64,000 nt of DNA from Alphaproteobacteria bacterium (GCA_031291395.1 JARLJD010000109.1:8294-72293), one strand, 5' to 3'; positions 19,486-62,408 are shown, counted from the first letter of the stretch. Numbers and translations are program-made. The notes: generated from the letters alone by a model not told the origin.

Positions 19486-20169
19486 TCACGCCTTCCTGTA
19501 AACGTAAATCACTTCCTTAAACGGCGTGCGGAATTGCACCACTTCAACCGGCTCCCACGGGGCGAGGAGGGGGAAGGTGTGCGAGATGACGGTGCCGCCG
19601 GGCTTCAGTTCGCGGTAGAGTTTTTCTCCGGCGCGTTCGGCGAAAGGGCGGGAAAGATAAAACACCACCGCGTCGATTTCCGAACAATCATAAGGCCAGA
19701 AATCGCAGCGTTGATAGGAAAGATTTTTTGGCCCCAGCCAGCGTTGCATCCACGATGATTGCAGATAGGGAATGCGCGCCAGCTCGATGCCGATCACGCG
19801 CGCGGTTGGGATGGTTTTGGCGATATGCCGCGTCAATTCCCCGCGCCCAGAGCCCAGATCGATCACGGTATAGCCGCGATCCATCCGCAGCGAAGCCTCG
19901 CGTTTCAGAATGTCGGCGATCTTGCCGCGGCCTGCAAACCCCGTCGCCAGAGTCGGCACATTGGCGCGGTTGATCGTCAGTTCAAACACGATCCGAAACG
20001 CCGCATAGAAGATAAAGATTAGCGGAAGAACGGAATACCACGTAAACCCCCGCGCGATATGCCATGCGCTGAGCCCCAGAATAACCAAAAGGCCGACGCC
20101 GATGATATCCAGTTGGACATGGCCGGAGGAGAAAAATTTTTTGAGAGTCATAGGGAGGCCATGGATCAT
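19486..20169 (-). CDS. class I SAM-dependent methyltransferase with N-terminal TM helices
   Basis: VIDLGSGRGELT motif I. The start is trimmed to an internal Met so it does not overlap tRNA-Arg. Confidence 0.55.
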   Translation of the reverse strand: MIHGLPMTLKKFFSSGHVQLDIIGVGLLVILGLSAWHIARGFTWYSVLPLIFIFYAAFRIVFELTINRANVPTLATGFAGRGKIADILKREASLRMDRGYTVIDLGSGRGELTRHIAKTIPTARVIGIELARIPYLQSSWMQRWLGPKNLSYQRCDFWPYDCSEIDAVVFYLSRPFAERAGEKLYRELKPGGTVISHTFPLLAPWEPVEVVQFRTPFKEVIYVYRKA

Positions 20170-20174
20170 AAAAA

Positions 20175-20251
20175 TGGTGCGCCCTGCGGGATTCGAACCC
20201 ACGACCTGCCGCTTAGAAGGCGGCCGCTCTATCCAACTGAGCTAAGGGCGC
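20175..20251 (-). tRNA. tRNA-Arg (TCT)
   Basis: The reverse complement reads GCGCCCTTAGCTCAGTTGGATAGAGCGGCCGCCTTCTAAGCGGCAGGTCGTGGGTTCGAATCCCGCAGGGCGCACCA. The anticodon loop CTTCTAA gives anticodon UCU. Confidence 0.85.
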
Positions 20252-20319: not shown

Positions 20320-20913
20320 TTACGGCTTGGCGTAGGGTTCGGCTTGAATCCACAGGATTTTCCAGTTGTCGCCATAGGCGGCGGCCAGTTTGGGGGCGTT
20401 CCACAGGACGAGGACGTTTTCGGAATTATGTTGCTCGGCCGCGGCGGTGTAGTTGAATGAGCCTGTTTCCACGGTTTTGCCGTCGATCACCATATATTTG
20501 TCGTGCTGCAACGTGTGGATAATATCGACGCGGAGGGGGATTTTGGCGGTTATCAGGGCAGCCGTGACGGAATGATTGCTTTTTTCGATCTGGCCGTGAT
20601 CGACGACAACCTCGACATCGATCCCCTCGCGATGCGCCGCGATCAGAGCCGCGGCTATGGGGCGCGAGGTGAAAGAATAGGCGGCGATGCGAATGCTTTG
20701 CCGCGCCGATTGAATCGCCTTGATGACCAGATCCGTTGCCCCGCCGTTGGGGGAGAAGGCCACTTCGACCGAGGGCGGCATTTCCGTTATTTGCGTCCCG
20801 CCCCCTTGAATGGCTTGAACCAAGCGCTGGGCGAGGGTGGAGGCGTGGGCGGGCGGAATCCACGAGAAGAAAAGGGCAAGCGAAATAAACGCAAGGCTGG
20901 GCTTGGGCTGCAT
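20320..20913 (-). CDS. secreted phospholipase-D-family endonuclease (Nuc-like, single HKD motif)
   Basis: Signal peptide MQPKPSLAFISLALFFSWIPPAHAS. The HKD motif lies within LQHDKYMVIDGKTVETGSFNYT. Confidence 0.75.
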   Translation of the reverse strand: MQPKPSLAFISLALFFSWIPPAHASTLAQRLVQAIQGGGTQITEMPPSVEVAFSPNGGATDLVIKAIQSARQSIRIAAYSFTSRPIAAALIAAHREGIDVEVVVDHGQIEKSNHSVTAALITAKIPLRVDIIHTLQHDKYMVIDGKTVETGSFNYTAAAEQHNSENVLVLWNAPKLAAAYGDNWKILWIQAEPYAKP

Positions 20914-21464
20914 GCGAGTCCTTTGTCCTCCGCCAGAGCTTCGCTTGCGCGGAGGGGATGGCGGCGGTTACGCGGGGAGGAGAGGGTGGTTGGTTAGATC
21001 TTATTTCACTTTCTACTCCCTTTTTTCGTCACCTTTTCCAAAATCTACTTCCAAAATTGACGCCCCCATGGGATCCCTGCGCGCAAACGCTGGGATGTAC
21101 AACGCCCTGATAGATCGACCCTTCACTCGAGACCCCGGGATCTCTTAGGACAGCTACCACTACCAGTCACCGCCCCCTTATGCTTCTCATCAGGGTGATG
21201 ATGGGAGGTATCATATACCGTGTTTGGGAAATATGCAAGAGGTTTTTGGGGGGCGGGGATTTTTTTTTGGGTTCTTTTCTGCATATCCTGTTTTCTTGAG
21301 AAAACAAGAAAAGCGAGAAAGTAACCAAATGGGATTCCGGATAAATTTTGCGCCGCAACGGTCAGTTTTCAATCACAAAGTTGGTTAGGGCGCAAAATTT
21401 TCCGGAATGACGATCTTTCGTTTTTCGAGTTTTTAATAAGAGACTTTAATGAGACGAAGAATAA

Positions 21465-22409
21465 TTAAAAGCTACATGGTGTGGCGGCCGTTGCTACCTT
21501 ATGGGGTAAACCTCGCTGCATAGTTCTTTTGAGGCGAGGGGGAGACGCGGAATTGGCGGGCGCGTTTACTTGCTTTTCGGCGGCAAACCATGGGAGCCGC
21601 CTGTTGTTAACCAGGGGCTTAAGTCTCCTTGTTTTGTGAAGATCGACGATTTGTTGAGCCACTGTTAACAGCCTTGTTGATCCCAGATTAATCTCAACAA
21701 TTTTGTTCGCTTTCATATCCAGCGCCTGAATGACGCCAGGAAGCCGCGCTGCTCTGGCAAATTTAGAGTTATTGCTCGCGCCCAGCAAACAGTGAGCGGC
21801 TTTGACTATGGCAACGCCCGCAGGAGTGTAAAAAGATTCTAATGTAATTGTTTTGCTTTGCGAATCTGCGATCGTGTTCTGGAACTGATGCGTACATTCA
21901 GCGTTGAGGACAAATGATTCCCACCCCTGCTTAAGTTGGAGGAGTCTTTTGATGCCTTTGTCGTTATTGGCGACGACTTGCGTGACAAGCGCGCTAATCA
22001 AAAGGTCGTTGGCTTTTAGATATGTTTGCAGAATGCAAGCGTTGTATATGAGATCAAGGCAGAACCCTGCTGGCTTTTCTCCCGGCCTCCATATTGAGCC
22101 AATTTCGGCAAAATTGACATCTAAGGACATAGGCTGCGGCTCACATGAGCGGGCAGTAACTGTCGAGCCTATGTTTATACAGCCAGGAAGAATGTGAACC
22201 GCTCCTGTTGCGGCGATGTTTCCTTCTGGTGTTGTTAACAGCAACATCAGGTCGTTGTTGATCGCCGCCCCAAAAGCTTCTGGTGTGCGTTCAAAAACAG
22301 TCGAAGGCTTTCGTGGATCCTGAAAGAATTTGACAATATACGGAAGGTCTTCGTAGTTGGCTATACGAAGCGTATATCTGATAGGCTTTTCTTCTTGATC
22401 ATAATTCAT
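21465..22409 (-). CDS. hypothetical protein, 314 aa, no motif I recognise
   Basis: A long ORF in an AT-rich islet. It is the second gene of an apparent two-gene operon; only 24 nt separate it from the upstream XRE-fusion gene. Confidence 0.5.
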   Translation of the reverse strand: MNYDQEEKPIRYTLRIANYEDLPYIVKFFQDPRKPSTVFERTPEAFGAAINNDLMLLLTTPEGNIAATGAVHILPGCINIGSTVTARSCEPQPMSLDVNFAEIGSIWRPGEKPAGFCLDLIYNACILQTYLKANDLLISALVTQVVANNDKGIKRLLQLKQGWESFVLNAECTHQFQNTIADSQSKTITLESFYTPAGVAIVKAAHCLLGASNNSKFARAARLPGVIQALDMKANKIVEINLGSTRLLTVAQQIVDLHKTRRLKPLVNNRRLPWFAAEKQVNAPANSASPPRLKRTMQRGLPHKVATAATPCSF

Positions 22410-22433
22410 GTTCTTAATCCCTGCGCCTTATCA

Positions 22434-23114
22434 TCAGGCCGTCTCGGTTGCTTTAATCGGCTTTGCGTTTCTCCATAAAACATGGAACATATCGCGATAC
22501 GCCTTGGCGACGAGCGCCGACGAAATGACAACTATTTGGGGCTCTTTATTTTCCTCGAATATAAGAATTCCCAGCTTGTCTCCGTATACATAAAAGGGGA
22601 CATTTCCTTCTGTTGCATCTGTCTGGAGGCGATATTCCCTATAATTTGTGTCAGGAATTTCTAATGATACTCCGTCTTTAGCCAGTATCTTGACTCTGAT
22701 TTTATTTTGCAAAGCCTCCATGCGTTTTGCATGAAGGACGGAGTAATCATACAAGTGCTTTACAAAGAAACGGTCATCTACATTACTCACGAAAATCGGC
22801 TTATCTCCGTTTGTTCCTGTGCTTTGCCGAAGAGCGGCTTGATAAACATCGTCCAGAAAACTTTTAAACCCTTCAATGCCAGAATATGTGAATACTTTAT
22901 TTTGATTGCGTCTTATGCCGTCGTTTTCTGTAAACTCAACCCCATGCACCGCAAACGCCCTTATAATCGCCTCCTCTGTCGTTTCCTGCGGCCTGAACGT
23001 TCCGTGTTCTATATTCTTAATCGTTTCCGGCGAGATTCCCGACGCCTTGGACAGGTCGCTTCTGCTCCAGTCCAGCAGGCCTCGCGCGGCTCTTAATTGT
23101 GCGGCGGTTATCAT
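22434..23114 (-). CDS. XRE-family HTH domain fused to a C-terminal domain of unknown function
   Basis: N-terminus MITAAQLRAARGLLDWSRSDLSKASGISPETIKNIEHG is a canonical XRE HTH. About 150 further residues have no motif I recognise. AT-rich. Confidence 0.55.
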   Translation of the reverse strand: MITAAQLRAARGLLDWSRSDLSKASGISPETIKNIEHGTFRPQETTEEAIIRAFAVHGVEFTENDGIRRNQNKVFTYSGIEGFKSFLDDVYQAALRQSTGTNGDKPIFVSNVDDRFFVKHLYDYSVLHAKRMEALQNKIRVKILAKDGVSLEIPDTNYREYRLQTDATEGNVPFYVYGDKLGILIFEENKEPQIVVISSALVAKAYRDMFHVLWRNAKPIKATETA

Positions 23115-23442
23115 TCGTTACTTACCCAATAATGCTCAAAAACTAAACTTGCCCGCAGAGGGGGCGTTTTTTCAATTCGGGTACTAAACTACCCTTTAAG
23201 GGAAGCCTTATGCAAGCGAATGATTACTTTCGTCGCTTTTTTGGCCTTTGCGCGTATTTTTACCGCCGATTTTAAAAATCCATATCTTATACCTTAATAA
23301 CTTCTAAACCAAAAAAAAGTTTTATGCAACCATTTATTGGTATTTAATTGCCGGTAATTGGTATGTATACTCTAACTATGGTCGCCGCGTTATTTTCGTG
23401 GCGCATTATTCAGAAACGAATTTTTTAAAAGGATAGAACGTC

Positions 23443-23763
23443 ATGCACAAGATATATATGACAGGCGCAAAAGAAGGCATCCCCGCGATGCAGGATGTTG
23501 GCGCATCGGTCGAAGATAATGTCATTATGCCGCGACGGTGGATGAAGGGACAGGCTGCTATGCGACAAACGCAGCAAGCCGTGAACGCCAACCAGCTGAC
23601 ATCGATCAGCGCGATGATTGCCTATATTTCCTATCATTCCGGTCAAAGCGAATTTAAAATCGAACGCGGTCTTTCCGATCGTTTCAATGTTCCGAACGCC
23701 AAGTGTTTGGCGGCGGACGATTTCGATGCCGCTATTCGTTATTTAGCGGATATAATTCCCTGA
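23443..23763 (+). CDS. hypothetical protein, 106 aa
   Basis: An ORF with an upstream AAAGGA ribosome-binding site, in the AT-rich region. Confidence 0.3.
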   Translation: MHKIYMTGAKEGIPAMQDVGASVEDNVIMPRRWMKGQAAMRQTQQAVNANQLTSISAMIAYISYHSGQSEFKIERGLSDRFNVPNAKCLAADDFDAAIRYLADIIP

Positions 23764-23792
23764 TGCGTTTTTTTCCCAAGGCGGGGGCTTCA

Positions 23793-24164
23793 ATGAAAAA
23801 TCTGACGGTTCTGGTTTTGGCGGCGCTTGTCGTTTTTTATGCGCCCGAGGCAAAAGCCGTGAGGATAGCGCCGACCGTGCAGGTTTTTATTCCGCAGGTG
23901 CCGTCTTTGCCGACTGTGCCAAGCTATCCGACGCAGGCTCCTCAAATTCCGAGCGTGGGGTTTATGCCGACGGTTACGACTATTTCTCAAGCGCCCCTGT
24001 CGCCGCAGACGACTTATGCGCCTCAAACGCAATATTACAATACGCAGCCGCCTCTCGTTCCCACAGCGCCTACCGCAGAGCAAGACACAACCGCGCCAAC
24101 GGTGCAAAGGTATAATTCCAATCCGCAGATCTTGCCGCAGGTTCAGATTTATACGGATCCTTGA
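23793..24164 (+). CDS. secreted proline/glutamine/threonine-rich low-complexity protein
   Basis: Signal peptide MKNLTVLVLAALVVFYAPEAKA followed by PTVQ/PQ-rich repeats. Confidence 0.4.
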   Translation: MKNLTVLVLAALVVFYAPEAKAVRIAPTVQVFIPQVPSLPTVPSYPTQAPQIPSVGFMPTVTTISQAPLSPQTTYAPQTQYYNTQPPLVPTAPTAEQDTTAPTVQRYNSNPQILPQVQIYTDP

Positions 24165-24211
24165 TTTTTAATAAGTGACTCTGTTTGACAGTTTCAAATA
24201 ACGGTGAAGCG

Positions 24212-24395
24212 AAAGCGGCTGGATTCCCGCCCCCTTGCGGGGAGGGTCAGGGTGGGGGCGTGCCGCAAAAGCAAGTTTGGGGCTATGTAAAATCTTGCCG
24301 CAAGGTAAACCCCAACCGCATTTCCCAGCCGTTCTCCCCCCTCCCTAACCCTCCCCGCAAGGGGGAGTGGATTCCACCGTTCTTGCGGAACCGCC
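24212..24395. repeat. MITE-like repeat family A, full-length, variant sequence
   Basis: gcggctggattcccgcccccttgcggggagggtcagggtggggg ... ccctaaccctccccgcaagggggagtggattcc. Confidence 0.7.
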
Positions 24396-26026: not shown

Positions 26027-27418
26027 TTAGGAAAAGATCGCGGGGAATTGCACGAGGACTTCCAATCCCCCTCCGGCGGACTTGTTTTGCAAAGCGAGCT
26101 TCGCGTCGATGAGTTCGGCGGCGCGTTTGGCGATCGCGAGGCCGAGCCCCGCGCCGGGTTGCCTTTGCCCCGGCACGCGGTAGAAATGTTCCGTCACATA
26201 GGGCAATTTATCTTCGGGAATGCCATGCCCCGTGTCGGAGACGGCGAGAAGGACGGTTTGATCCTGCGCGGACAGACTTACAAGAACGTCTCCTTGCGCA
26301 GGCGTGTATTTGATCGCGTTTTCGATCAGATTGGAGAGAATGATCGCGATAAGTTCCTTGTTGCCGCGGACGGCGAGGGGGGCTTGCTGCTCGAAGCGCA
26401 GAGCAATTTGTTCTTGCGCGGCAAGCGGTCGCTTTTCCTGCACGACGGATCGCACGATGTCGTTGAGCGGCAATTTTTCCATCGGGATGTCGCCTTGCTC
26501 CAATCGTGCAAGGGCCAGCAGTTGATCGACCAGTTGGGTCGCACGATTGGCAGCTTGCACTTGCGCTTCCAGAATCATGCGCCGCTCGGCATCATTGGTC
26601 GACACTAGCGCGGTTTGCGCTTGCGTTTTCAGGACGGCGATCGGCGTTCGCAATTCATGCGCGGCAAAATCGGTGAAGCGGCGTTCTTTTTCCAGCTCAT
26701 AATCAAGATCGGCCAGAAGCCCGTTAATGGAATAAACCAGCGGCGTGATTTCCGTGAGCAAGCGTTCCGTCGGTATGGGAGTCAGGTCTTTGGCGGATCG
26801 GCGCTTGACGGCCTCGGAAAGCGCAAGCAGTGGCTTAAGCCCCGCTCTTAGCCCCATCCATGTGATCAGCAGGATGATAGGAAGCAACATAAGCAGAGGC
26901 GAAAAAATGGTGGTCAGAATGTCATTGACGAGCAATTTCCTGATTTTCAATCTTTGCGCCAACTCCAGCGTATAGCCGGTCTTTGCGTCGGGCAGAACAT
27001 AGAAACGCCAGTTTCTGCCGTTAATTTGCTGCGTAGAAAAGCCCTTGTTAAACCGTTCATCGCCAAAGTTTGCGGCTCTTTTGGAATAGAACAGCAATTT
27101 GCCGTGTTTCCATATCCGGAAGGCGACTTTTTCTTCGTATTGTTGTTCGTCTTTAAGGAAGAAGGTGGTCAATCCGACAATTTCCGGATTGATCTGTTTC
27201 TTGTCGTCGGCAATCAGGTCTTGCGCTGTTTCTTGCTGGTGTTCGGCGTGGAGCAGGGCGAGCATAAGCGAGGCGACATGCGACAATTCGGTGTCATATA
27301 TCCCTTCGGCCTCATTATAGGTCGAATAAAGGTCGAGGCTGCTGTCGATCGCCAGCGCCAGAATGACCGGCAGCGCAAGAAACAGCAAAAGACGGGCTTT
27401 AAGAGATCTTTTCCACAA
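26027..27418 (-). CDS. sensor histidine kinase (two TM segments, HAMP, HisKA, HATPase_c)
   Basis: H-box FTDFAAHELRTPIAVL, N-box LIENAIKYT and G-box DTGHGIP. Confidence 0.85.
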   Translation of the reverse strand: MWKRSLKARLLLFLALPVILALAIDSSLDLYSTYNEAEGIYDTELSHVASLMLALLHAEHQQETAQDLIADDKKQINPEIVGLTTFFLKDEQQYEEKVAFRIWKHGKLLFYSKRAANFGDERFNKGFSTQQINGRNWRFYVLPDAKTGYTLELAQRLKIRKLLVNDILTTIFSPLLMLLPIILLITWMGLRAGLKPLLALSEAVKRRSAKDLTPIPTERLLTEITPLVYSINGLLADLDYELEKERRFTDFAAHELRTPIAVLKTQAQTALVSTNDAERRMILEAQVQAANRATQLVDQLLALARLEQGDIPMEKLPLNDIVRSVVQEKRPLAAQEQIALRFEQQAPLAVRGNKELIAIILSNLIENAIKYTPAQGDVLVSLSAQDQTVLLAVSDTGHGIPEDKLPYVTEHFYRVPGQRQPGAGLGLAIAKRAAELIDAKLALQNKSAGGGLEVLVQFPAIFS

Positions 27419-28064
27419 CGTACCCCATCCCCCTTACGGTTTTGATAAGTGGCTCGCCAAGTTTCTTGCGCAGGTGTGAGATATGAACTTCCACCGTGTT
27501 GCTTTCAACCCCTGTGTCCCATCCGTATAGCTTGTCTTCGATTTCCTGTTTGCTGAAAAGCTTGCCGATATTTCCCATTAGAACCGCCAGCACCTCGAAT
27601 TCACGCGACGACAGGTTGACGGCCTCTCCGTCCTTCCACACCGTTTTGGCGGCAAGGTCGAGCGCGATGGAGCCGTTTTCGATCTGCGGTGTCGAAAGCC
27701 CTTTGCTGCGCCGAAAAAGCGCCTGCACCCGCGCGAGCAATTCATCGAGGTCGAAAGGCTTGGTCAAATAATCGTCTATACCCATGTTCAGCCCTTCGAC
27801 TTTCTGCTGCGTGGCGTTGCGCGCCGTCAGCGCCAGCACGGGAAGGACTTTCCGGTTTTTGCGCAGATCGGTTATCAGTGCCAGCCCCGATTTGCCCGGT
27901 AGATTGATGTCGAGAACCATAAGATCGTAGGTCGTGGTATCGAGCGCCGCTTCCGCATCCTCCGCCGTTTCGATCAGATCGACGGCATGACCTGCTTGGG
28001 ACAAAGCGACTTTTACCGCTCGCCCCATCATCGGATCGTCTTCAACCAATAATATGCGAATCAT
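27399..28064 (-). CDS. OmpR-family response regulator
   Basis: Receiver domain (MIRILLVEDDPMM...DLMVLDINLPGKSG) plus a winged-helix C-terminus (VEVHISHLRKKL). The start is set at the internal ATG, complement 28062-28064. Confidence 0.85.
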   Translation of the reverse strand: MIRILLVEDDPMMGRAVKVALSQAGHAVDLIETAEDAEAALDTTTYDLMVLDINLPGKSGLALITDLRKNRKVLPVLALTARNATQQKVEGLNMGIDDYLTKPFDLDELLARVQALFRRSKGLSTPQIENGSIALDLAAKTVWKDGEAVNLSSREFEVLAVLMGNIGKLFSKQEIEDKLYGWDTGVESNTVEVHISHLRKKLGEPLIKTVRGMGYVVEKIS

Positions 28065-28185
28065 ACTTTTTCTCGTCTCAAGAGTTGGCGCACTTTTGTA
28101 TTTACCACAAAGCTGGTGGTGGCACACCAACTCTTGAGTGAGGAGAACATTATTGCTTTGCGATCATTTTTTTTGCATGCGAAGT

Positions 28186-28890
28186 TCAGGCTGATACCGC
28201 CTCAGTTTTGACCCCCGGGGCGGGGGGTGAGGTTTCAAATCTGCGCAAGATGTCTCCGGCCATGACTTTGGGATGCGTAGTGAAATAAGCGCCCCATCGG
28301 GTTTCCTTGTATCCTTGCTGTTCGGAATATCCCTCTGCGATGACGCGCGGGGTGAGGCCGAGATTGCAAAGATAGCGTTTAAGCGGCGCCGTGCCGGTGA
28401 AGATAATGTGCGACACGCCTCTTAAGGCCAAAAGGCAGGTCATGCTGTGAAGCAGATACGAGATGTTGCCTGTTCCCGATGACGCCAAGTTTCCCACTTC
28501 GGCCAGCGCGCGGCGTGGGATGCGCCATCCTGTGTGTTCTTGCAAACAGGCTTCCGCAGATCTGGCGAGGTAGCGTTCCAGATACAGCGGAACGCCTTCC
28601 ACGGCGCGGCGAATGCCTAAGGCGGCGATGGGATCGCCTTTGGCATCGGCAAGCCCCATCAGAAGCGGGTAGGTCGTTTCGACATTCGCGCCATAGGTTT
28701 TGCGAAAAACAGTCGCGATATAGCGCGAAAGAGATTCATATCCGTCATTGCCCTCGCGCGCCAGCAACAGCGACGGATGCTGTACGTTAAGGTTGTCGTG
28801 CGCAGGATGTCTGGAAGGATTGGCGTGGTATTGTGAAATGCGTGTTTGCATGGAAGCCTCCGTGCGATTGGTGAAGGCCACAGTCTGCAC
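28186..28890 (-). CDS. thermostable-hemolysin-like / GNAT-fold acyltransferase-like protein (uncertain)
   Basis: 234 aa with EVGNLASSG, a GNAT-like beta-bulge motif. It resembles my recollection of the delta-VPH (T_hemolysin) family. The true start may be the internal Met at about 28851. Confidence 0.35.
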   Translation of the reverse strand: MQTVAFTNRTEASMQTRISQYHANPSRHPAHDNLNVQHPSLLLAREGNDGYESLSRYIATVFRKTYGANVETTYPLLMGLADAKGDPIAALGIRRAVEGVPLYLERYLARSAEACLQEHTGWRIPRRALAEVGNLASSGTGNISYLLHSMTCLLALRGVSHIIFTGTAPLKRYLCNLGLTPRVIAEGYSEQQGYKETRWGAYFTTHPKVMAGDILRRFETSPPAPGVKTEAVSA

Positions 28891-43881: not shown

Positions 43882-43899
43882 AATCAGTGGTGCCGCAAC

Positions 43900-44055
43900 A
43901 GCGGCGGAATCCCCTCCCCCTCTATGGGGGAGGGTTAGGGTGGGGGTGGTGGTTATACACAAACTGCTTTTGATTATGCAAAACAGTTGTTGTGGCACGT
44001 TCGCCCCCACCCTACCCCTCCCCCATAGAGGGGGAGGGAATCACGCCGTTTTCGT
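43900..44055. repeat. MITE-like repeat family A, full-length
   Basis: gcggcggaatcccctccccctctatgggggagggttagggtggggg ... cccccaccctacccctcccccatagagggggagggaatc. Confidence 0.75.
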
Positions 44056-44155
44056 TTCACTGTTATTTTAATCGTCAAACAGATTTGCTTATTTCCTCAC
44101 GGCGACATAACTGATTTCTGGCGTTTTTGAAAGATTGACTCGATAGGAAAAAATC

Positions 44156-46535: not shown

Positions 46536-47114
46536 ATGGAGGGACATATGGTTTTTTCAAAAAAATATGCAGGACTCGAGGAAGATAAACGCGCCTACCA
46601 TGCTGGTCTTGCTGCCCGTTTAAGCGGGGATGTTAAGGTTATTGGAGCGGACGGCAATCCACTTGAAGAATACATGACCCCAGAATGGCAGGAGTGCCTG
46701 ACGACGCCGGATGATACTCCTGTCTCATTCAAAAGCCCCGGTCATTATAGCGAATACTACGCAAGTAGAGATGGAAAGCTAAAATGTGCTATTCACTGGG
46801 ATAACGGAGGTCAAGAATATGCGAATGAACGATATGAGAATATTAAAGATGAAACGACCCACTTTATATTACGTTATTCCGATGGCCGTGTAGTAGAATT
46901 TCGAGGATGGAAAGGAGGCGTGCTCCATAACAAAATAGCGGGTTCGGATGATTGTCCGGCTTCTATTTTTTCTCCGGCTTATATTTTTTCTGAACGCGAC
47001 AAGGACACCGGTCAACAAAGGGTCACGTATAGTGAATATTACGATCGAAACAGGCCGCTTCTTAAAGTGCAAGGACTCGGTGGCCCTGTATGTCTAATTC
47101 CCTCACCAAGATAA
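46536..47114 (+). CDS. hypothetical protein, 192 aa
   Basis: A long AT-rich ORF with a GGAGG ribosome-binding site and no motif I recognise. Confidence 0.4.
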   Translation: MEGHMVFSKKYAGLEEDKRAYHAGLAARLSGDVKVIGADGNPLEEYMTPEWQECLTTPDDTPVSFKSPGHYSEYYASRDGKLKCAIHWDNGGQEYANERYENIKDETTHFILRYSDGRVVEFRGWKGGVLHNKIAGSDDCPASIFSPAYIFSERDKDTGQQRVTYSEYYDRNRPLLKVQGLGGPVCLIPSPR

Positions 47115-53031: not shown

Positions 53032-54240
53032 ATGACCTTCATCAACGAAAACTTTCTCAAACTTTCCGAAACCTATTTGTTTGTCGAAATCGGGCGGCGC
53101 GTCGAGGCTTATTGCAAGACGCATCCCGAAGCCGCGATCGTTCGCTGCGGCATCGGCGACGTTACGGAGCCTTTGCCCGACGCTTGCATTAAGGCGATGC
53201 ACAAAGCGGTCGATGAAATGGCCGCGCGCGAAACTTTTCGCGGTTATGGGCCGGAGGCGGGGTATGAATTTTTGCGTCATGCGATCGCTGAAGGTGATTT
53301 CCGCCAGCGCGGCATTGAAATCGCCGACGATGAGATTTTTATTTCCGACGGCAGTAAATGCGATTGCGCCAATTTTCTGGATATTCTGGGTGCGGGCAAT
53401 CGCATTCTGATGCCCGATCCGGTCTATCCCGTCTATGCCGACACCAATATTATGGCAGGCAACGCGATTTCTTTTTCGCAAGCGACTGCTGAAAACGGTT
53501 TCGTTCCCGCGCCGCCCGATGCGCCTGCCGATCTGATTTATCTTTGCTTTCCCAACAATCCGACCGGAGCCGTCGCGACGAAAGAACAACTGGCGGCGTG
53601 GGTCGCCTACGCGCATCGACACGATGCGATCATCCTGTTCGACGCGGCCTATGAATCTTTTGTGCGAACGCCTGATCTGCCAAAGTCGATTTATGAGATT
53701 CCGGACGCGCTGGATTGCGCCGTTGAAATGCGCAGCTTTTCCAAAAGCGGCGGATTTACGGGATTGCGCTGCGGCTACTGCGTCGTGCCGAAAGCTGTCA
53801 AGGGACGCAAACAAAGTGGCGGCGAAAAATCCCTGCATGCGCTGTGGTCGCGCCGCCAATCGACTAAATTCAACGGCGTCGCCTATATCGTGCAACGCGC
53901 GGCCGAGGCTTTGTATTCCGATGAGGGCAGGGCGCAAGTTGCGGCGCTGACAGGATTCTATTTGGAAAATGCGCGCCTTCTGGCCGATGCTTTGACTCGC
54001 GCGGGAAGATCGTTCGTCGGGGGCGTCGATGCGCCCTATCTGTGGGTTAAGGGAAACAAGGGCATGACGAGTTGGGACATGTTCGCGCATTTGCTGGAAC
54101 AAGCAGGGATCGTCGCAACGCCCGGCAGCGGCTTCGGCGCGAAGGGCGAGGGGTATTTCCGGCTTTCGGCATTCAACATTCGGGAGAATATCGAAGAAGC
54201 GTGTCGGCGGTTGGCGGCCATAAGCCTTGAAAAACTATAA
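53032..54240 (+). CDS. dapL: LL-diaminopimelate aminotransferase
   Basis: 402-aa fold-type I aminotransferase. The N-terminus FLKLSETYLF plus SFSKSGGFTGLRCGY (the PLP-Lys region) match DapL. Confidence 0.75.
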   Translation: MTFINENFLKLSETYLFVEIGRRVEAYCKTHPEAAIVRCGIGDVTEPLPDACIKAMHKAVDEMAARETFRGYGPEAGYEFLRHAIAEGDFRQRGIEIADDEIFISDGSKCDCANFLDILGAGNRILMPDPVYPVYADTNIMAGNAISFSQATAENGFVPAPPDAPADLIYLCFPNNPTGAVATKEQLAAWVAYAHRHDAIILFDAAYESFVRTPDLPKSIYEIPDALDCAVEMRSFSKSGGFTGLRCGYCVVPKAVKGRKQSGGEKSLHALWSRRQSTKFNGVAYIVQRAAEALYSDEGRAQVAALTGFYLENARLLADALTRAGRSFVGGVDAPYLWVKGNKGMTSWDMFAHLLEQAGIVATPGSGFGAKGEGYFRLSAFNIRENIEEACRRLAAISLEKL

Positions 54241-54256
54241 GGAAAGGAAAGACATC

Positions 54257-54946
54257 GTGCGTCCTGAAACCACTCTTTTTATATTGACGTCCGTTGATGG
54301 AAAAATTTCAACTGGAGATACGGACCAGTTGGACGTCGATCAGGATTTTCCAAATATTCCAGGCATCGCTGAAGGCTTGACCCAATATTACGAATTGGAA
54401 AAAACGACGGATTTCTTTTCGTTGAATTCTGGCCGAGTTATGGCCAAGATCGGCGCTAACAGATATTTGCCTGATGTAAAAAACACTTTGTGCACTTTTA
54501 TCATTATCGATAACAAACCCCATCTTGAGGAGACGGGCGTTGACTACCTTAAAAAACGCTGCAAGGGTCTCATTCTGGTGACCAGCAATCCCCAACATCC
54601 AGCGTTTGCAAGAAAAGCGGATAACGGCTTGAGAATATTCTATTATGAGAAGAAGATAGATTTTCCCGATCTTTTTTCAAAACTAAAAAGCGAATGCGGT
54701 GTAGATCGCCTGACAATTCAAAGCGGTGGTTCATTGAATGCGCAGTTTGTCCGTTTGGGTCTGGTTGACCATCTTTCAATTGTGGTTGCGCCCGCCCTCA
54801 TCGGAGGGAAGAATACTTCGTCACTGATGGACGGAGAATCTCTTCATAATCTATGCGATCTTTCAAACATTAAGGCCTTGAGGCTCACAGAGTGCCGTGT
54901 TTTGGATCATTCTTATCTTAACCTGAGGTATGACCTTATAAATTGA
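54257..54946 (+). CDS. RibD C-terminal-domain / dihydrofolate-reductase-like reductase
   Basis: TLFILTSVDGKIS and LTIQSGGSLNAQFVRLGLVDHLSIVVAPALIGG. A GTG start at 54257 follows an AAGGAAAGGAAAG ribosome-binding site. AT-rich. Confidence 0.55.
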   Translation: MRPETTLFILTSVDGKISTGDTDQLDVDQDFPNIPGIAEGLTQYYELEKTTDFFSLNSGRVMAKIGANRYLPDVKNTLCTFIIIDNKPHLEETGVDYLKKRCKGLILVTSNPQHPAFARKADNGLRIFYYEKKIDFPDLFSKLKSECGVDRLTIQSGGSLNAQFVRLGLVDHLSIVVAPALIGGKNTSSLMDGESLHNLCDLSNIKALRLTECRVLDHSYLNLRYDLIN

Positions 54947-59832: not shown

Positions 59833-60099
59833 GAGACGGGGAAGGTTAGGGGGCGGGAGAATGTTATCAGATATTTTGGGGGGAATGGAAAGATGAAAGA
59901 AGGAGTCTTTTTTGCGGCCTAAATTATGGATTCTTTGTCTCCTAGAAAACCAGAAAAATAGAGACATTGCCATTCCGGAAAATTCTGCGCTCTAACCGAT
60001 TTTGTAAGTCAAAATTGGCTGTTGAGGCGCAAAAATTATCCGGAATCCTATTTATTTGCATTTTTTTCTTTTTCAGGTTCTCAAGGAAACGAGGTGGAG

Positions 60100-60154: not shown

Positions 60155-60472
60155 TTATCCGGAGATCATTGGACCTTTGGCGTCGGGAACAATTGCGCGG
60201 ACTTTCCGAGTGTTTTCGGAACGATGTGGTGCTTTAGGGTAGCTGTCTGCGGCCAGAGTGGGCGCGTTTCCTTTTGGGGTTAACGGCGTTGCCGCCCCGA
60301 ACAATTCTTCAAGCCGTGAGATTTGCTGTATGTATGGATTAGGGAGTTTTCCGAATAATGAGCTAACCCCGTAGTCCTTGGCGTACATTTTTTGAAGCGC
60401 TCGCATCGAAGCATAATTTCTTCGAGAAACGCGGGACAATTGTTCCACGGAAATTTCCGGCTTATTCTGCAT
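60155..60472 (-). CDS. hypothetical basic protein, 105 aa
   Basis: AT-rich. It overlaps the upstream ORF by 11 nt. Confidence 0.4.
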   Translation of the reverse strand: MQNKPEISVEQLSRVSRRNYASMRALQKMYAKDYGVSSLFGKLPNPYIQQISRLEELFGAATPLTPKGNAPTLAADSYPKAPHRSENTRKVRAIVPDAKGPMISG

Positions 60473-60869
60473 GATCGTCCTCCAAAGATAAGATTAAATT
60501 TTCTGCTCTTTTAACGTGAAGCGGCACATCTTCTTCGCTAAGGCTTATTTGATTTTCATCGGCGGGTGAAAAATAGGCGTCATATATTTCGCGTAAGGCT
60601 TTCAGCTTCGGGGCGTCTTGTTCCTGTTCTTCCTTGTTGCGCGTCAGAAGAATGCGATCCATCTCGTCCAACTGTTCATAGACGTGTTTCCTTAGTTCCT
60701 TATGCACAGCCCTCTCGATCTTCAAATCCTCCCAATCCTTCATAATCTTATAAATAGTGTTCTTAACAACCGGCCAATGGTCGCCCTCGCCCATTTCATG
60801 ACCCGCGACGAGGAGGGCGTTGCGGACGAGGCGCACCATTTGTTCTTCGGCGATGTCGACTTCTGTCAT
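60462..60869 (-). CDS. hypothetical acidic protein, about 135 aa
   Basis: AT-rich. The start is set at the internal Met (MTEVDIAEEQ); the longer ORF begins in an upstream hydrophobic stretch. Confidence 0.4.
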   Translation of the reverse strand: MTEVDIAEEQMVRLVRNALLVAGHEMGEGDHWPVVKNTIYKIMKDWEDLKIERAVHKELRKHVYEQLDEMDRILLTRNKEEQEQDAPKLKALREIYDAYFSPADENQISLSEEDVPLHVKRAENLILSLEDDHAE

Positions 60870-61120
60870 GGTTTTCTCCACGCCTTTATCGTACCACGCA
60901 AAGGCGAAAGTAATTAGCAAAAAACGCCTGTGGCACAGTCGTTTCTTAGCATTTTTGTGTTTAAGGAACGCTTAATATCGTATGGCTTTTTAGAGAATAT
61001 TTTGGGGGAACGCCTGCGGAATTAACGTAAAATTACTTTCACAGAAGATGCGGGGTTTTGTTAACGGATTGTTTGCTTTATATTCCGAATATTCCGACCA
61101 ATATTAAATAGCTCTTGTTC

Positions 61121-62075: not shown

Positions 62076-62152
62076 TTTTATCTTTCTTTCGCCTTTATTC
62101 TCGTTTCTTATACTGTGACTTGAAGTGATTTTAAACTAAACTTGCCACAGAA

Positions 62153-62335
62153 ACGGCGGAATCCCCTCCCCCTCGCGGGGAGGGTTAGGGAGGGGGGAGA
62201 GCGACTGGGAAAGGCGGTTGGGAATGAGGAACGATCTTGCTGCAAGATTTCTTATAATTCCAAATTTGGTCTCTTGCGGAACTCCCCCCTCCCTAACCCT
62301 CCCCGCGAGGGGGAGGGGATTCTACCGCCCTTGCG
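62153..62335. repeat. MITE-like repeat family A, full-length
   Basis: aacggcggaatcccctccccctcgcggggagggttagggagggggg ... cccccctccctaaccctccccgcgagggggaggggattctaccg. Confidence 0.75.
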
Positions 62336-62408
62336 GCACTGCTTCTTTCGCTTATAAAAGAGGCTCATTTATTCTCTCAGATGCCTAACCCCTAACCCCC
62401 GCCTTCCA

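Follow-up and report, generated by a model that had tools for sequence, protein, structure and literature searches.

An XRE regulator with a catalytically dead phospholipase D fold in a conserved gene cluster of Micavibrio-related Alphaproteobacteria

When a larger gene comes closely after the gene for a helix-turn-helix (HTH) protein, and both lie in AT-rich DNA beside a transfer RNA (tRNA) gene, does the pair represent a toxin-antitoxin or defense module, or does it serve another purpose? This question is raised by a 64,000-nucleotide stretch of genomic DNA from an Alphaproteobacteria bacterium (GCA_031291395.1, JARLJD010000109.1:8294-72293; hereafter, the window), in which a gene for an XRE-type HTH protein and a gene for a 314-amino acid protein lie in such a setting. 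A preliminary description of the window, made from the sequence alone, proposed that they form a horizontally acquired toxin-antitoxin or defense module. Our analysis moves the pair from a toxin-antitoxin or defense candidate to a conserved cluster made up of a regulator plus cargo genes, and the regulator was shown to be of a one-component type that combines an XRE HTH with a catalytically dead domain of the phospholipase D (PLD)/Nuc fold.

The regulator, its relatives, and its family

The gene at 22434-23114 on the minus strand encodes, as had been described, a canonical XRE HTH (HTH_3, 1e-07, residues 7-60) that is fused to a second domain. Pfam, NCBIfam, and PADLOC searches with the regulator returned generic HTH matches, and the best sequence and structure matches of the HTH were the controller (C) proteins of restriction-modification (R-M) systems, such as C.Kpn2I and C.AhdI. 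The C-terminal domain was covered by no Pfam model, and the structure model of the regulator was confident, with a predicted local distance difference test score (pLDDT) of 87.8. The HxKxxxxD motif occurred in none of 40 members of the regulator family, whereas the full HKD motif was present in all 12 of the neighboring nucleases. Sequence likeness between the regulator and the nuclease was confined to the last helix (hhalign E value, 0.0015), and many charged and aromatic residues of the former catalytic pocket were kept invariant in the regulator. To the extent that the libraries used and the searchable literature reveal, neither the architecture of an XRE HTH joined to a dead PLD fold nor the 314-amino acid protein has been described; nothing relevant emerged when the literature was searched for Micavibrio regulators and for regulators of the XRE/PLD-fold type.

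The closest kin of the components of the locus are TrmB/TrmBL2 for the dead PLD domain, C proteins for the HTH, Nuc/NucT for the neighboring nuclease, and, tentatively, Gcn5-related N-acetyltransferases (GNATs) for the 314-amino acid protein. TrmB and TrmBL2 resemble the regulator in having a PLD-like fold domain that lacks the HKD motif, but they carry a winged helix where the regulator has an XRE/Cro-C1 HTH, and the regulator had no Pfam TrmB match. Because the protein ends with the PLD fold, it has neither the coiled-coil linker nor the C-terminal sugar-binding beta subdomain that are features of TrmB. After TrmB, the regulator is thus a second case in which a nuclease/phospholipase fold has been put to regulatory use. 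Nuc (pKM101/Salmonella) and NucT (Helicobacter pylori) are endonucleases with a single HKD motif, the His and Lys of which are missing from the regulator domain. C proteins share with this regulator the HTH match, the position as the first gene of an operon that ends in a nuclease gene, and an operator-like element inside the promoter. They are, however, stand-alone proteins of 80-100 amino acids encoded beside cytoplasmic restriction enzymes and DNA methyltransferases, whereas the HTH of the present regulator is fused to a 150-amino acid domain, the associated nuclease is predicted to be exported, and no DNA methyltransferase is present.

The regulator family has more than 300 members. A scan with the regulator alignment, for which one genome per species was taken, yielded 78 loci, and all 78 came from metagenome-assembled genomes (MAGs) labeled Alphaproteobacteria, Rhodospirillaceae, Micavibrio, or 'Bdellovibrionales', plus Micavibrio aeruginosavorus HCB189; the label 'Bdellovibrionales' arises because the NCBI taxonomy files Micavibrio under that order. 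The family appears to be confined to Micavibrio-related Alphaproteobacteria. Several genomes contained many regulator paralogs, and the family is strongly expanded in some of them. About 10 tandem paralogs were seen within 7 kb in the MAG STD2_238 (JAQUYN010000002.1; L051:5234-12329), and several pairs of a regulator gene with the small gene p109, described below, stood side by side in loci L083, L084, L086, and L065-L067.

The conserved cluster and its control region

The features of the locus, with positions counted from the first nucleotide of the window, are as follows.

20175-20251, minus strand: tRNA-Arg(TCT) gene (ARAGORN and Rfam), a neighbor outside the module
20320-20913, minus strand: gene for the PLD nuclease, 197 amino acids (PLDc_2 match), last gene of the conserved operon
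21205-21239, minus strand: second copy of the promoter/operator motif (pattern match upstream of the PLD gene)
21290-21434: family-B repeat element of about 145 nucleotides, with a second copy at 59946-60090
21465-22409, minus strand: open reading frame (ORF) for fam314, a cytoplasmic protein of 314 amino acids
22434-23114, minus strand: ORF for the regulator, 226 amino acids, with N-terminal XRE HTH and C-terminal PLD/Nuc-fold domain
23115-23442: divergent control region with conserved blocks and direct repeats
23443-23763, plus strand: ORF for p109, 106 amino acids, divergent from the regulator gene
23793-24164, plus strand: ORF downstream of p109 for a secreted low-complexity protein rich in Pro, Gln, Thr, and Val
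24202-24393: family-A element resembling a miniature inverted-repeat transposable element (MITE), with inverted-repeat arms, forming the block boundary toward the 3-deoxy-D-arabino-heptulosonate 7-phosphate (DAHP) synthase gene

The ORFs, the tRNA-Arg gene, the PLD nuclease gene, and the MITE were all found where the preliminary description had placed them, and the fam314 gene does follow the regulator gene on the same strand after 24 nucleotides. Gene order was surveyed by means of exact-protein look-ups and a hidden Markov model scan of 88 fetched loci. An arrangement in which p109 (about 109 amino acids) is divergent from the regulator gene, and the regulator gene is followed by fam314 (about 300-340 amino acids) and then by PLD (about 200 amino acids), was found on eight or more independent contigs from metagenomes or MAGs (L001, L003/L004/L011, L007/L008/L014, L012, L022, L026, L035, and an ERZ1426827 contig). 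Relatives were 60-75% identical to the window protein for the regulator, 21-64% for fam314, 61% for p109, and 66% for PLD (L003), and the genes flanking the cluster differed in every genome compared. The preliminary description had considered that the two proteins might prove to be housekeeping proteins with syntenic orthologs; the cluster is indeed syntenic in related genomes, but its genes are lineage-specific and its flanks are not syntenic. The pair is not a compact, patchily distributed mobile two-gene module; it is embedded in a conserved cluster of four to five genes.

The gene directly 3' of the regulator gene almost always encodes an enzyme of 300-430 amino acids, and the families of these enzymes differ. 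The partner was a Methyltransf_33 protein in 20 loci, M. aeruginosavorus among them, and a fam314 member in 18 loci; further partners were class-I methyltransferases, Acetyltransf_1 and Acetyltransf_3 GNATs, a 2-hydroxyacid dehydrogenase, an LPG-synthase-C-like protein, a D-glutamate-cyclase-like protein, and members of three unknown families. In a neighbor-joining tree, the regulators clustered by partner enzyme, which is the behavior of dedicated regulator-enzyme pairs, and regulators and enzymes were shown to have co-diversified. The pairing of regulator and fam314 was kept in 18 of 18 loci with a fam314 member, and the distant member P0138 is likewise preceded by a gene for a 230-amino acid HTH protein; this strict pairing upholds the earlier suggestion that the HTH gene and the 314-amino acid gene form a functional pair. 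In a separate observation, a BrnT/BrnA toxin-antitoxin pair (L090:8041-8557) was located 2 kb downstream of a distant regulator-fam314 pair and is unrelated to that pair.

The fam314 family is lineage-specific and rare: an exhaustive HMMER search among 1.84 billion proteins gave 35 representatives at E ≤ 1e-3. Word-indexed searching found just three or four relatives, and the 48%-identical L003 protein was missed even with a profile. No usable match to fam314 was obtained in Pfam, NCBIfam, PADLOC, or PHROGs, and no Pfam GNAT model exceeded its gathering score for the window protein. Among the folds that had been suggested for the 314-amino acid protein (RES, Fic, HipA, AbiEii-type nucleotidyltransferase, and GNAT), GNAT was the sole one with any evidence, and this evidence was weak. 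Three of the four best profile matches in the PDB were GNATs (E values, 0.06-1.7), and family members matched Acetyltransf_3, _8, or _9, all below threshold, in four weak member matches. When fam314 was compared by hhalign with 12 other partner-enzyme clusters, a collinear alignment was obtained with the Acetyltransf_3 cluster alone (184 columns; E value, 0.0019; probability, 14%), a cluster that consists of proteins following other regulator paralogs. The acyl-CoA motif A (Q/RxxGxG/A) was not evident in fam314, in which WRPGEKPAGF follows the putative beta4 strand, and the structure model had a pLDDT of 46. Taken from these profile comparisons, the N-terminal half of about 150 amino acids is probably GNAT-like; the C-terminal region of about 150 amino acids, for which no relatives were found, is an addition that distinguishes fam314 from the GNAT superfamily.

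The protein encoded at 20320-20913 gave a clear match to PLDc_2 (1.3e-25; 90 bits against a cut-off of 27). Like its 12 orthologs, it has a complete HKD motif (HDKYMVIDGKTVETGSFN), and it fits the motif HxK(x)4D(x)6GSxN in a single domain of about 150 amino acids. Its N-terminus resembles a signal peptide (MQPKPSLAFISLALFFSWIPPAHA, followed by S), and all 12 orthologs have an N-terminal hydrophobic segment that ends in an AxA-like site. NCBIfam NucT models scored 24-39 bits against cut-offs of 211-351, and the PLD protein is therefore a distinct subfamily; it is predicted to be a Sec-exported, single-domain endonuclease of the Nuc/NucT type. A PLD gene was found after fam314 or another enzyme in loci L001, L003, L007, L012, L019, L022, L026, L035, L041, L043, and L045. 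In L019 it follows Methyltransf_33, in L043 and L045 it follows an unknown 390-amino acid family, and in L041 it is directly 3' of the regulator gene. The fam314 and PLD genes overlap in L001 and L007 and are separated by 25 nucleotides in L003. The PLD nuclease had been taken for a boundary of the AT-rich islet, a role that it does not have, as its gene closes the conserved operon in relatives. In the window, a repeat element was shown to have split the PLD gene from the operon: the family-B element, which was overlooked earlier, sits in the 550-nucleotide gap between the fam314 and PLD genes.

On the other side of the regulator gene, p109 adjoined it in about 50 of the 78 loci. The window protein is 61% identical to the protein of L003, as given above, and 47% identical to that of L005. 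The p109 family has a conserved C-terminal domain of about 65 amino acids that is common to phage proteins by weak matches; weak PHROG matches were obtained to phrog_6521 (13 of 30 members), phrog_5825 (8 of 30), and anti-repressor families (4-6 of 30), and p109 had no match in Pfam or the PDB. Such matches suggest that p109 is possibly a phage-type anti-repressor-like partner. The proline-rich protein encoded downstream has a signal-peptide-like N-terminus (MKNLTVLVLAALVVFYAPEAKA), and in L004 and L007 proline-rich proteins of 144-147 amino acids that bear signal peptides are encoded at the same position after the small gene.

The region of about 330 nucleotides between the p109 and regulator genes was strikingly conserved across 12 loci, the regulators of which are just 55-75% identical. 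The conserved block on the regulator side (23180-23235) has the form GACGAAAGTAATCA..CTTGCATA..CCCTTAAAGGG..TACC, or GACGAAAGTAATCA..CTTGCATA..CCCTT(T)AAAGGG..TA..TACC across the 12 loci, and it reads as a putative -35-like TTGCAT followed by a spacer that contains a near-palindrome. A TTGCAT-N17-TATAAA sequence, in which the window has TAGAAG for TATAAA, is situated further upstream. The p109 side has two direct repeats of ATACCAAT, 21 nucleotides apart (23338-23363). The pattern CTTGCAT-N4-9-CCC-N5-9-GGTA had exactly two matches in the 64 kb, compared with 0.00 expected from shuffles: one at 23190-23216, before the regulator gene, and the other at 21216-21239, before the PLD gene. The PLD-side copy, CTTGCATA-N3-CCC-N6-GGTA-N5-TACC, forms TTGCAT, 17 nucleotides, and TATGAT. 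Because of this second copy, the PLD gene, though split off by the repeat, appears to keep its control element.

Origin, proposed function, and alternatives

The AT-rich stretch that had been reported at 21.1-24.2 kb is real and has the lowest GC content in the window, but it ends near 23.76 kb. Windows of 500 nucleotides had GC contents of 0.42-0.49 from about 21.0 to 23.75 kb and of 0.55-0.61 on both sides (standard deviation over 500-nucleotide windows, 0.046), and the lowest-GC 2.6-kb segment of the 64 kb was the block that starts at 21.1-21.2 kb (GC, 0.451-0.455; window mean, 0.548). The GC content at third codon positions (GC3) was 0.48 for the regulator and fam314 genes, compared with 0.641 ± 0.082 for 47 long ORFs (z of about -2), and both genes were among the four lowest. 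Two ORFs elsewhere in the window also have low GC3 values: 46536-47114 (plus strand; 0.36, below the two main genes), with no Pfam family match, and 54227-54946 (plus strand; 0.45, similarly low), which encodes a RibD_C-domain protein.

The same composition was seen in relatives: an AT content above that of the surroundings was recorded for the regulator gene in 15 of 15 related loci, for the fam314 gene in 12 of 13, and for the p109 gene in 9 of 10; the PLD gene was more GC-rich than its surroundings in 7 of 8. Because low GC is common to the orthologs in related genomes, it provides no evidence of recent transfer; it is a long-standing trait of these genes across the clade and not a mark of recent import. 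No integrase was found among the ORFs at 11.9-32 kb, in agreement with the preliminary description, and no tRNA-derived direct repeat was found in 17.5-26.5 kb. The AT-rich block lies on the 5' side of the tRNA-Arg gene, whereas a tRNA-linked island would be on the 3' side. Full-length homologs were absent from 72,556 plasmids and 50,697 phage records. These results do not support a foreign islet of recent acquisition.

In our estimate, there is an even chance that the locus is a regulatory unit specific to the lineage of Micavibrio-related Alphaproteobacteria, made up of a divergent gene pair and attached cargo, and that this unit also has a secreted nuclease under its control. The regulator would dimerize via its PLD-fold domain, as Nuc does, and would bind a CCC-N6-GG(G)TA element located in the spacers of two promoters, that of its own operon and that of the PLD gene. 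The regulator would be modulated by a small charged ligand that occupies the pocket of the lost active site and is plausibly akin to what the paired enzyme consumes or makes, with p109 acting as an antagonist or a second regulator. The output would be a cytoplasmic acyl-transfer reaction together with two exported proteins, one of which is a nuclease, and an exported nuclease would suit nucleic-acid scavenging by an epibiotic predator. Several points weigh against such a unit. The roles of all five proteins are putative; the ligand, the operator site, and the part played by p109 are inferences; and that the source organism is a predator is an assumption drawn from its relatives. The GNAT assignment depends on sub-threshold evidence and a structure model with the low pLDDT given above, and the unit does not account for the lasting AT-richness of three genes beside a GC-normal PLD gene of the same operon. 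Only about a dozen of the 78 loci with a regulator have a linked PLD gene, so that control of a nuclease is not a property of the entire regulator family.

A type II toxin-antitoxin system, in which the XRE protein would be the antitoxin and the GNAT-like 314-amino acid protein the toxin (e.g., a TacT/AtaT-like aminoacyl-tRNA acetyltransferase), is suggested by the co-oriented genes 24 nucleotides apart with the regulator first, by the strict pairing of regulator and fam314, by the weak GNAT signals in fam314, and by the likeness of the HTH, at low scores, to HipB-type and other XRE antitoxins. The HipBA, HigBA, and TacT/AtaT systems are similar in having the HTH gene first, a larger gene tightly after it, and likely autoregulation. 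We nevertheless regard this explanation as quite improbable: no toxin family was matched in Pfam, NCBIfam, or PADLOC; paralogous regulators pair with ordinary non-toxin enzymes (Methyltransf_33, 2-hydroxyacid dehydrogenase, and D-glutamate-cyclase-like, among others); the unit is vertically conserved with p109 and PLD, and with three further genes in all; and it was not found in the plasmid or phage records. Known GNAT toxins, moreover, have about 170 amino acids and are paired with antitoxins of the ribbon-helix-helix (RHH)/DUF1778 type. A very improbable alternative is anti-phage defense, in which the PLD nuclease would be the effector (compare DrmC of DISARM and PLD-type restriction enzymes), the XRE protein would serve as a C protein, and a modifying role would fall to the middle enzyme. 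PADLOC-DB 2.0 gave partial matches for the HTH (control protein, RmrA N-terminus, and capH) and for the PLD protein (DrmC, at best 8e-11), and none for fam314, p109, or the proline-rich protein. The DrmC score of 38.8 bits was, however, far under the cut-off of 133, and no other DISARM or R-M component is nearby; within about 8 kb, no defense genes were found, and the flanks are housekeeping genes. The predicted signal peptide on the PLD protein, present in 12 of 12 orthologs, implies a site of action beyond the cytoplasm, no PLD gene accompanies most of the regulator loci, and Methyltransf_33 enzymes are known as EgtD-like small-molecule methyltransferases and not as DNA methyltransferases. 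The toxin-antitoxin or defense module originally proposed is thus unsupported by any toxin or defense family match, by the genes around it, or by the paralogous regulators, which precede unrelated metabolic-type enzymes.

The regulator-enzyme pairs could also be quorum-sensing-like signal synthase-receptor pairs, in which the enzyme (fam314, Methyltransf_33, a GNAT, or another) would make a modified small molecule of the amino acid type and the cognate dead PLD pocket would sense it. We give this proposal a small chance of being correct: the diffusible product is hypothetical, ordinary substrate-responsive regulators of catabolic or modifying enzymes would give the same pattern, and the fold of fam314 is uncertain. 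Equally unlikely is the extension that Micavibrio-like predators expanded such signal pairs into a multitude of orthogonal channels, by which secreted predation factors, for example, the Nuc-type nuclease, are gated. Alternatively, the locus could be what is left of a prophage immunity region in which an XRE repressor faces an Ant-like anti-repressor and moron genes are carried along. Such an origin would fit the divergent pair with operator-like repeats between, the p109 domain that is common to phage proteins including anti-repressor PHROGs (with weak E values), and the low GC of the genes. This is in our judgment the least probable of the explanations considered: the window flanks contain no other phage genes, the chromosomal cluster is conserved in many genomes with multiple paralogs per genome, and the phage records held no full-length match. 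In a variant of the signal-pair proposal, to which we likewise give a small chance, the dead PLD domain may itself have been derived from the adjacent nuclease gene and may pair with the nuclease precursor, which would thereby be held inactive until its export, with the regulator doubling as an immunity protein. A lineage-specific regulatory unit, the explanation that we prefer, offers a lead for a poorly known predatory group, namely, a candidate regulon with a defined DNA motif that ties the regulator to a secreted nuclease. A second lead is the set of regulator-enzyme pairs, the ligands of which could be found biochemically.

Repeat elements and neighboring genes

The family-A MITE at 24202-24393 has inverted-repeat arms of 57 nucleotides (24202-24258 and 24337-24393), and similar copies are located elsewhere in the window at 1170-1870, 43890-44110, and 62143-62340. 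The family-A elements are built on the palindrome CCCTCCCC...GGGGAGGG, and two copies lie close together at 1.2-1.8 kb. An Rfam search of 18-26 kb detected two tRNAs, and the MITE gave just spurious sub-threshold matches to microRNA precursors. The family-B element has an internal 21-bp hairpin (GGATTCCGGATAAATTTTGCGCC...GGCGCAAAATTTTCCGGAATG); its second copy at 59946-60090 is inverted and matches it at 74% over 145 nucleotides, with an almost invariant core. That second copy is situated in another AT-rich stretch, where it adjoins two small unknown ORFs (60155-60920).

A 16-nucleotide direct repeat, TTTTTAATAAG[A/T]GACT, at 21430-21445 and 24165-24180 exactly encloses the AT-rich block of four genes; a repeat element adjoins either copy, and the window contains no further exact copies. 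The bracketing may be due to chance, and we rejected it as a signature of mobility because the orthologous loci have the PLD gene contiguous with the block.

The flanking genes encode a LysA-like decarboxylase, IspDF, UppP, tRNA-Asp, a lytic transglycosylase, a methyltransferase, tRNA-Arg, DAHP synthase, and a two-component pair. With its listed start, the ORF for the class-I methyltransferase (19486-20202, minus strand) overlaps the tRNA-Arg gene by 28 nucleotides; its true start is probably the ATG at 20169 (MIHGLPM...), just beyond the 3' end of the tRNA. The possibility that this methyltransferase corresponds to the 241-amino acid gene that follows PLD in L003 was ruled out, as the two have no similarity. 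A T_hemolysin (PF12261) family protein is encoded at 28186-28890 on the minus strand, adjoining the histidine-kinase/response-regulator pair at 26027-28130.

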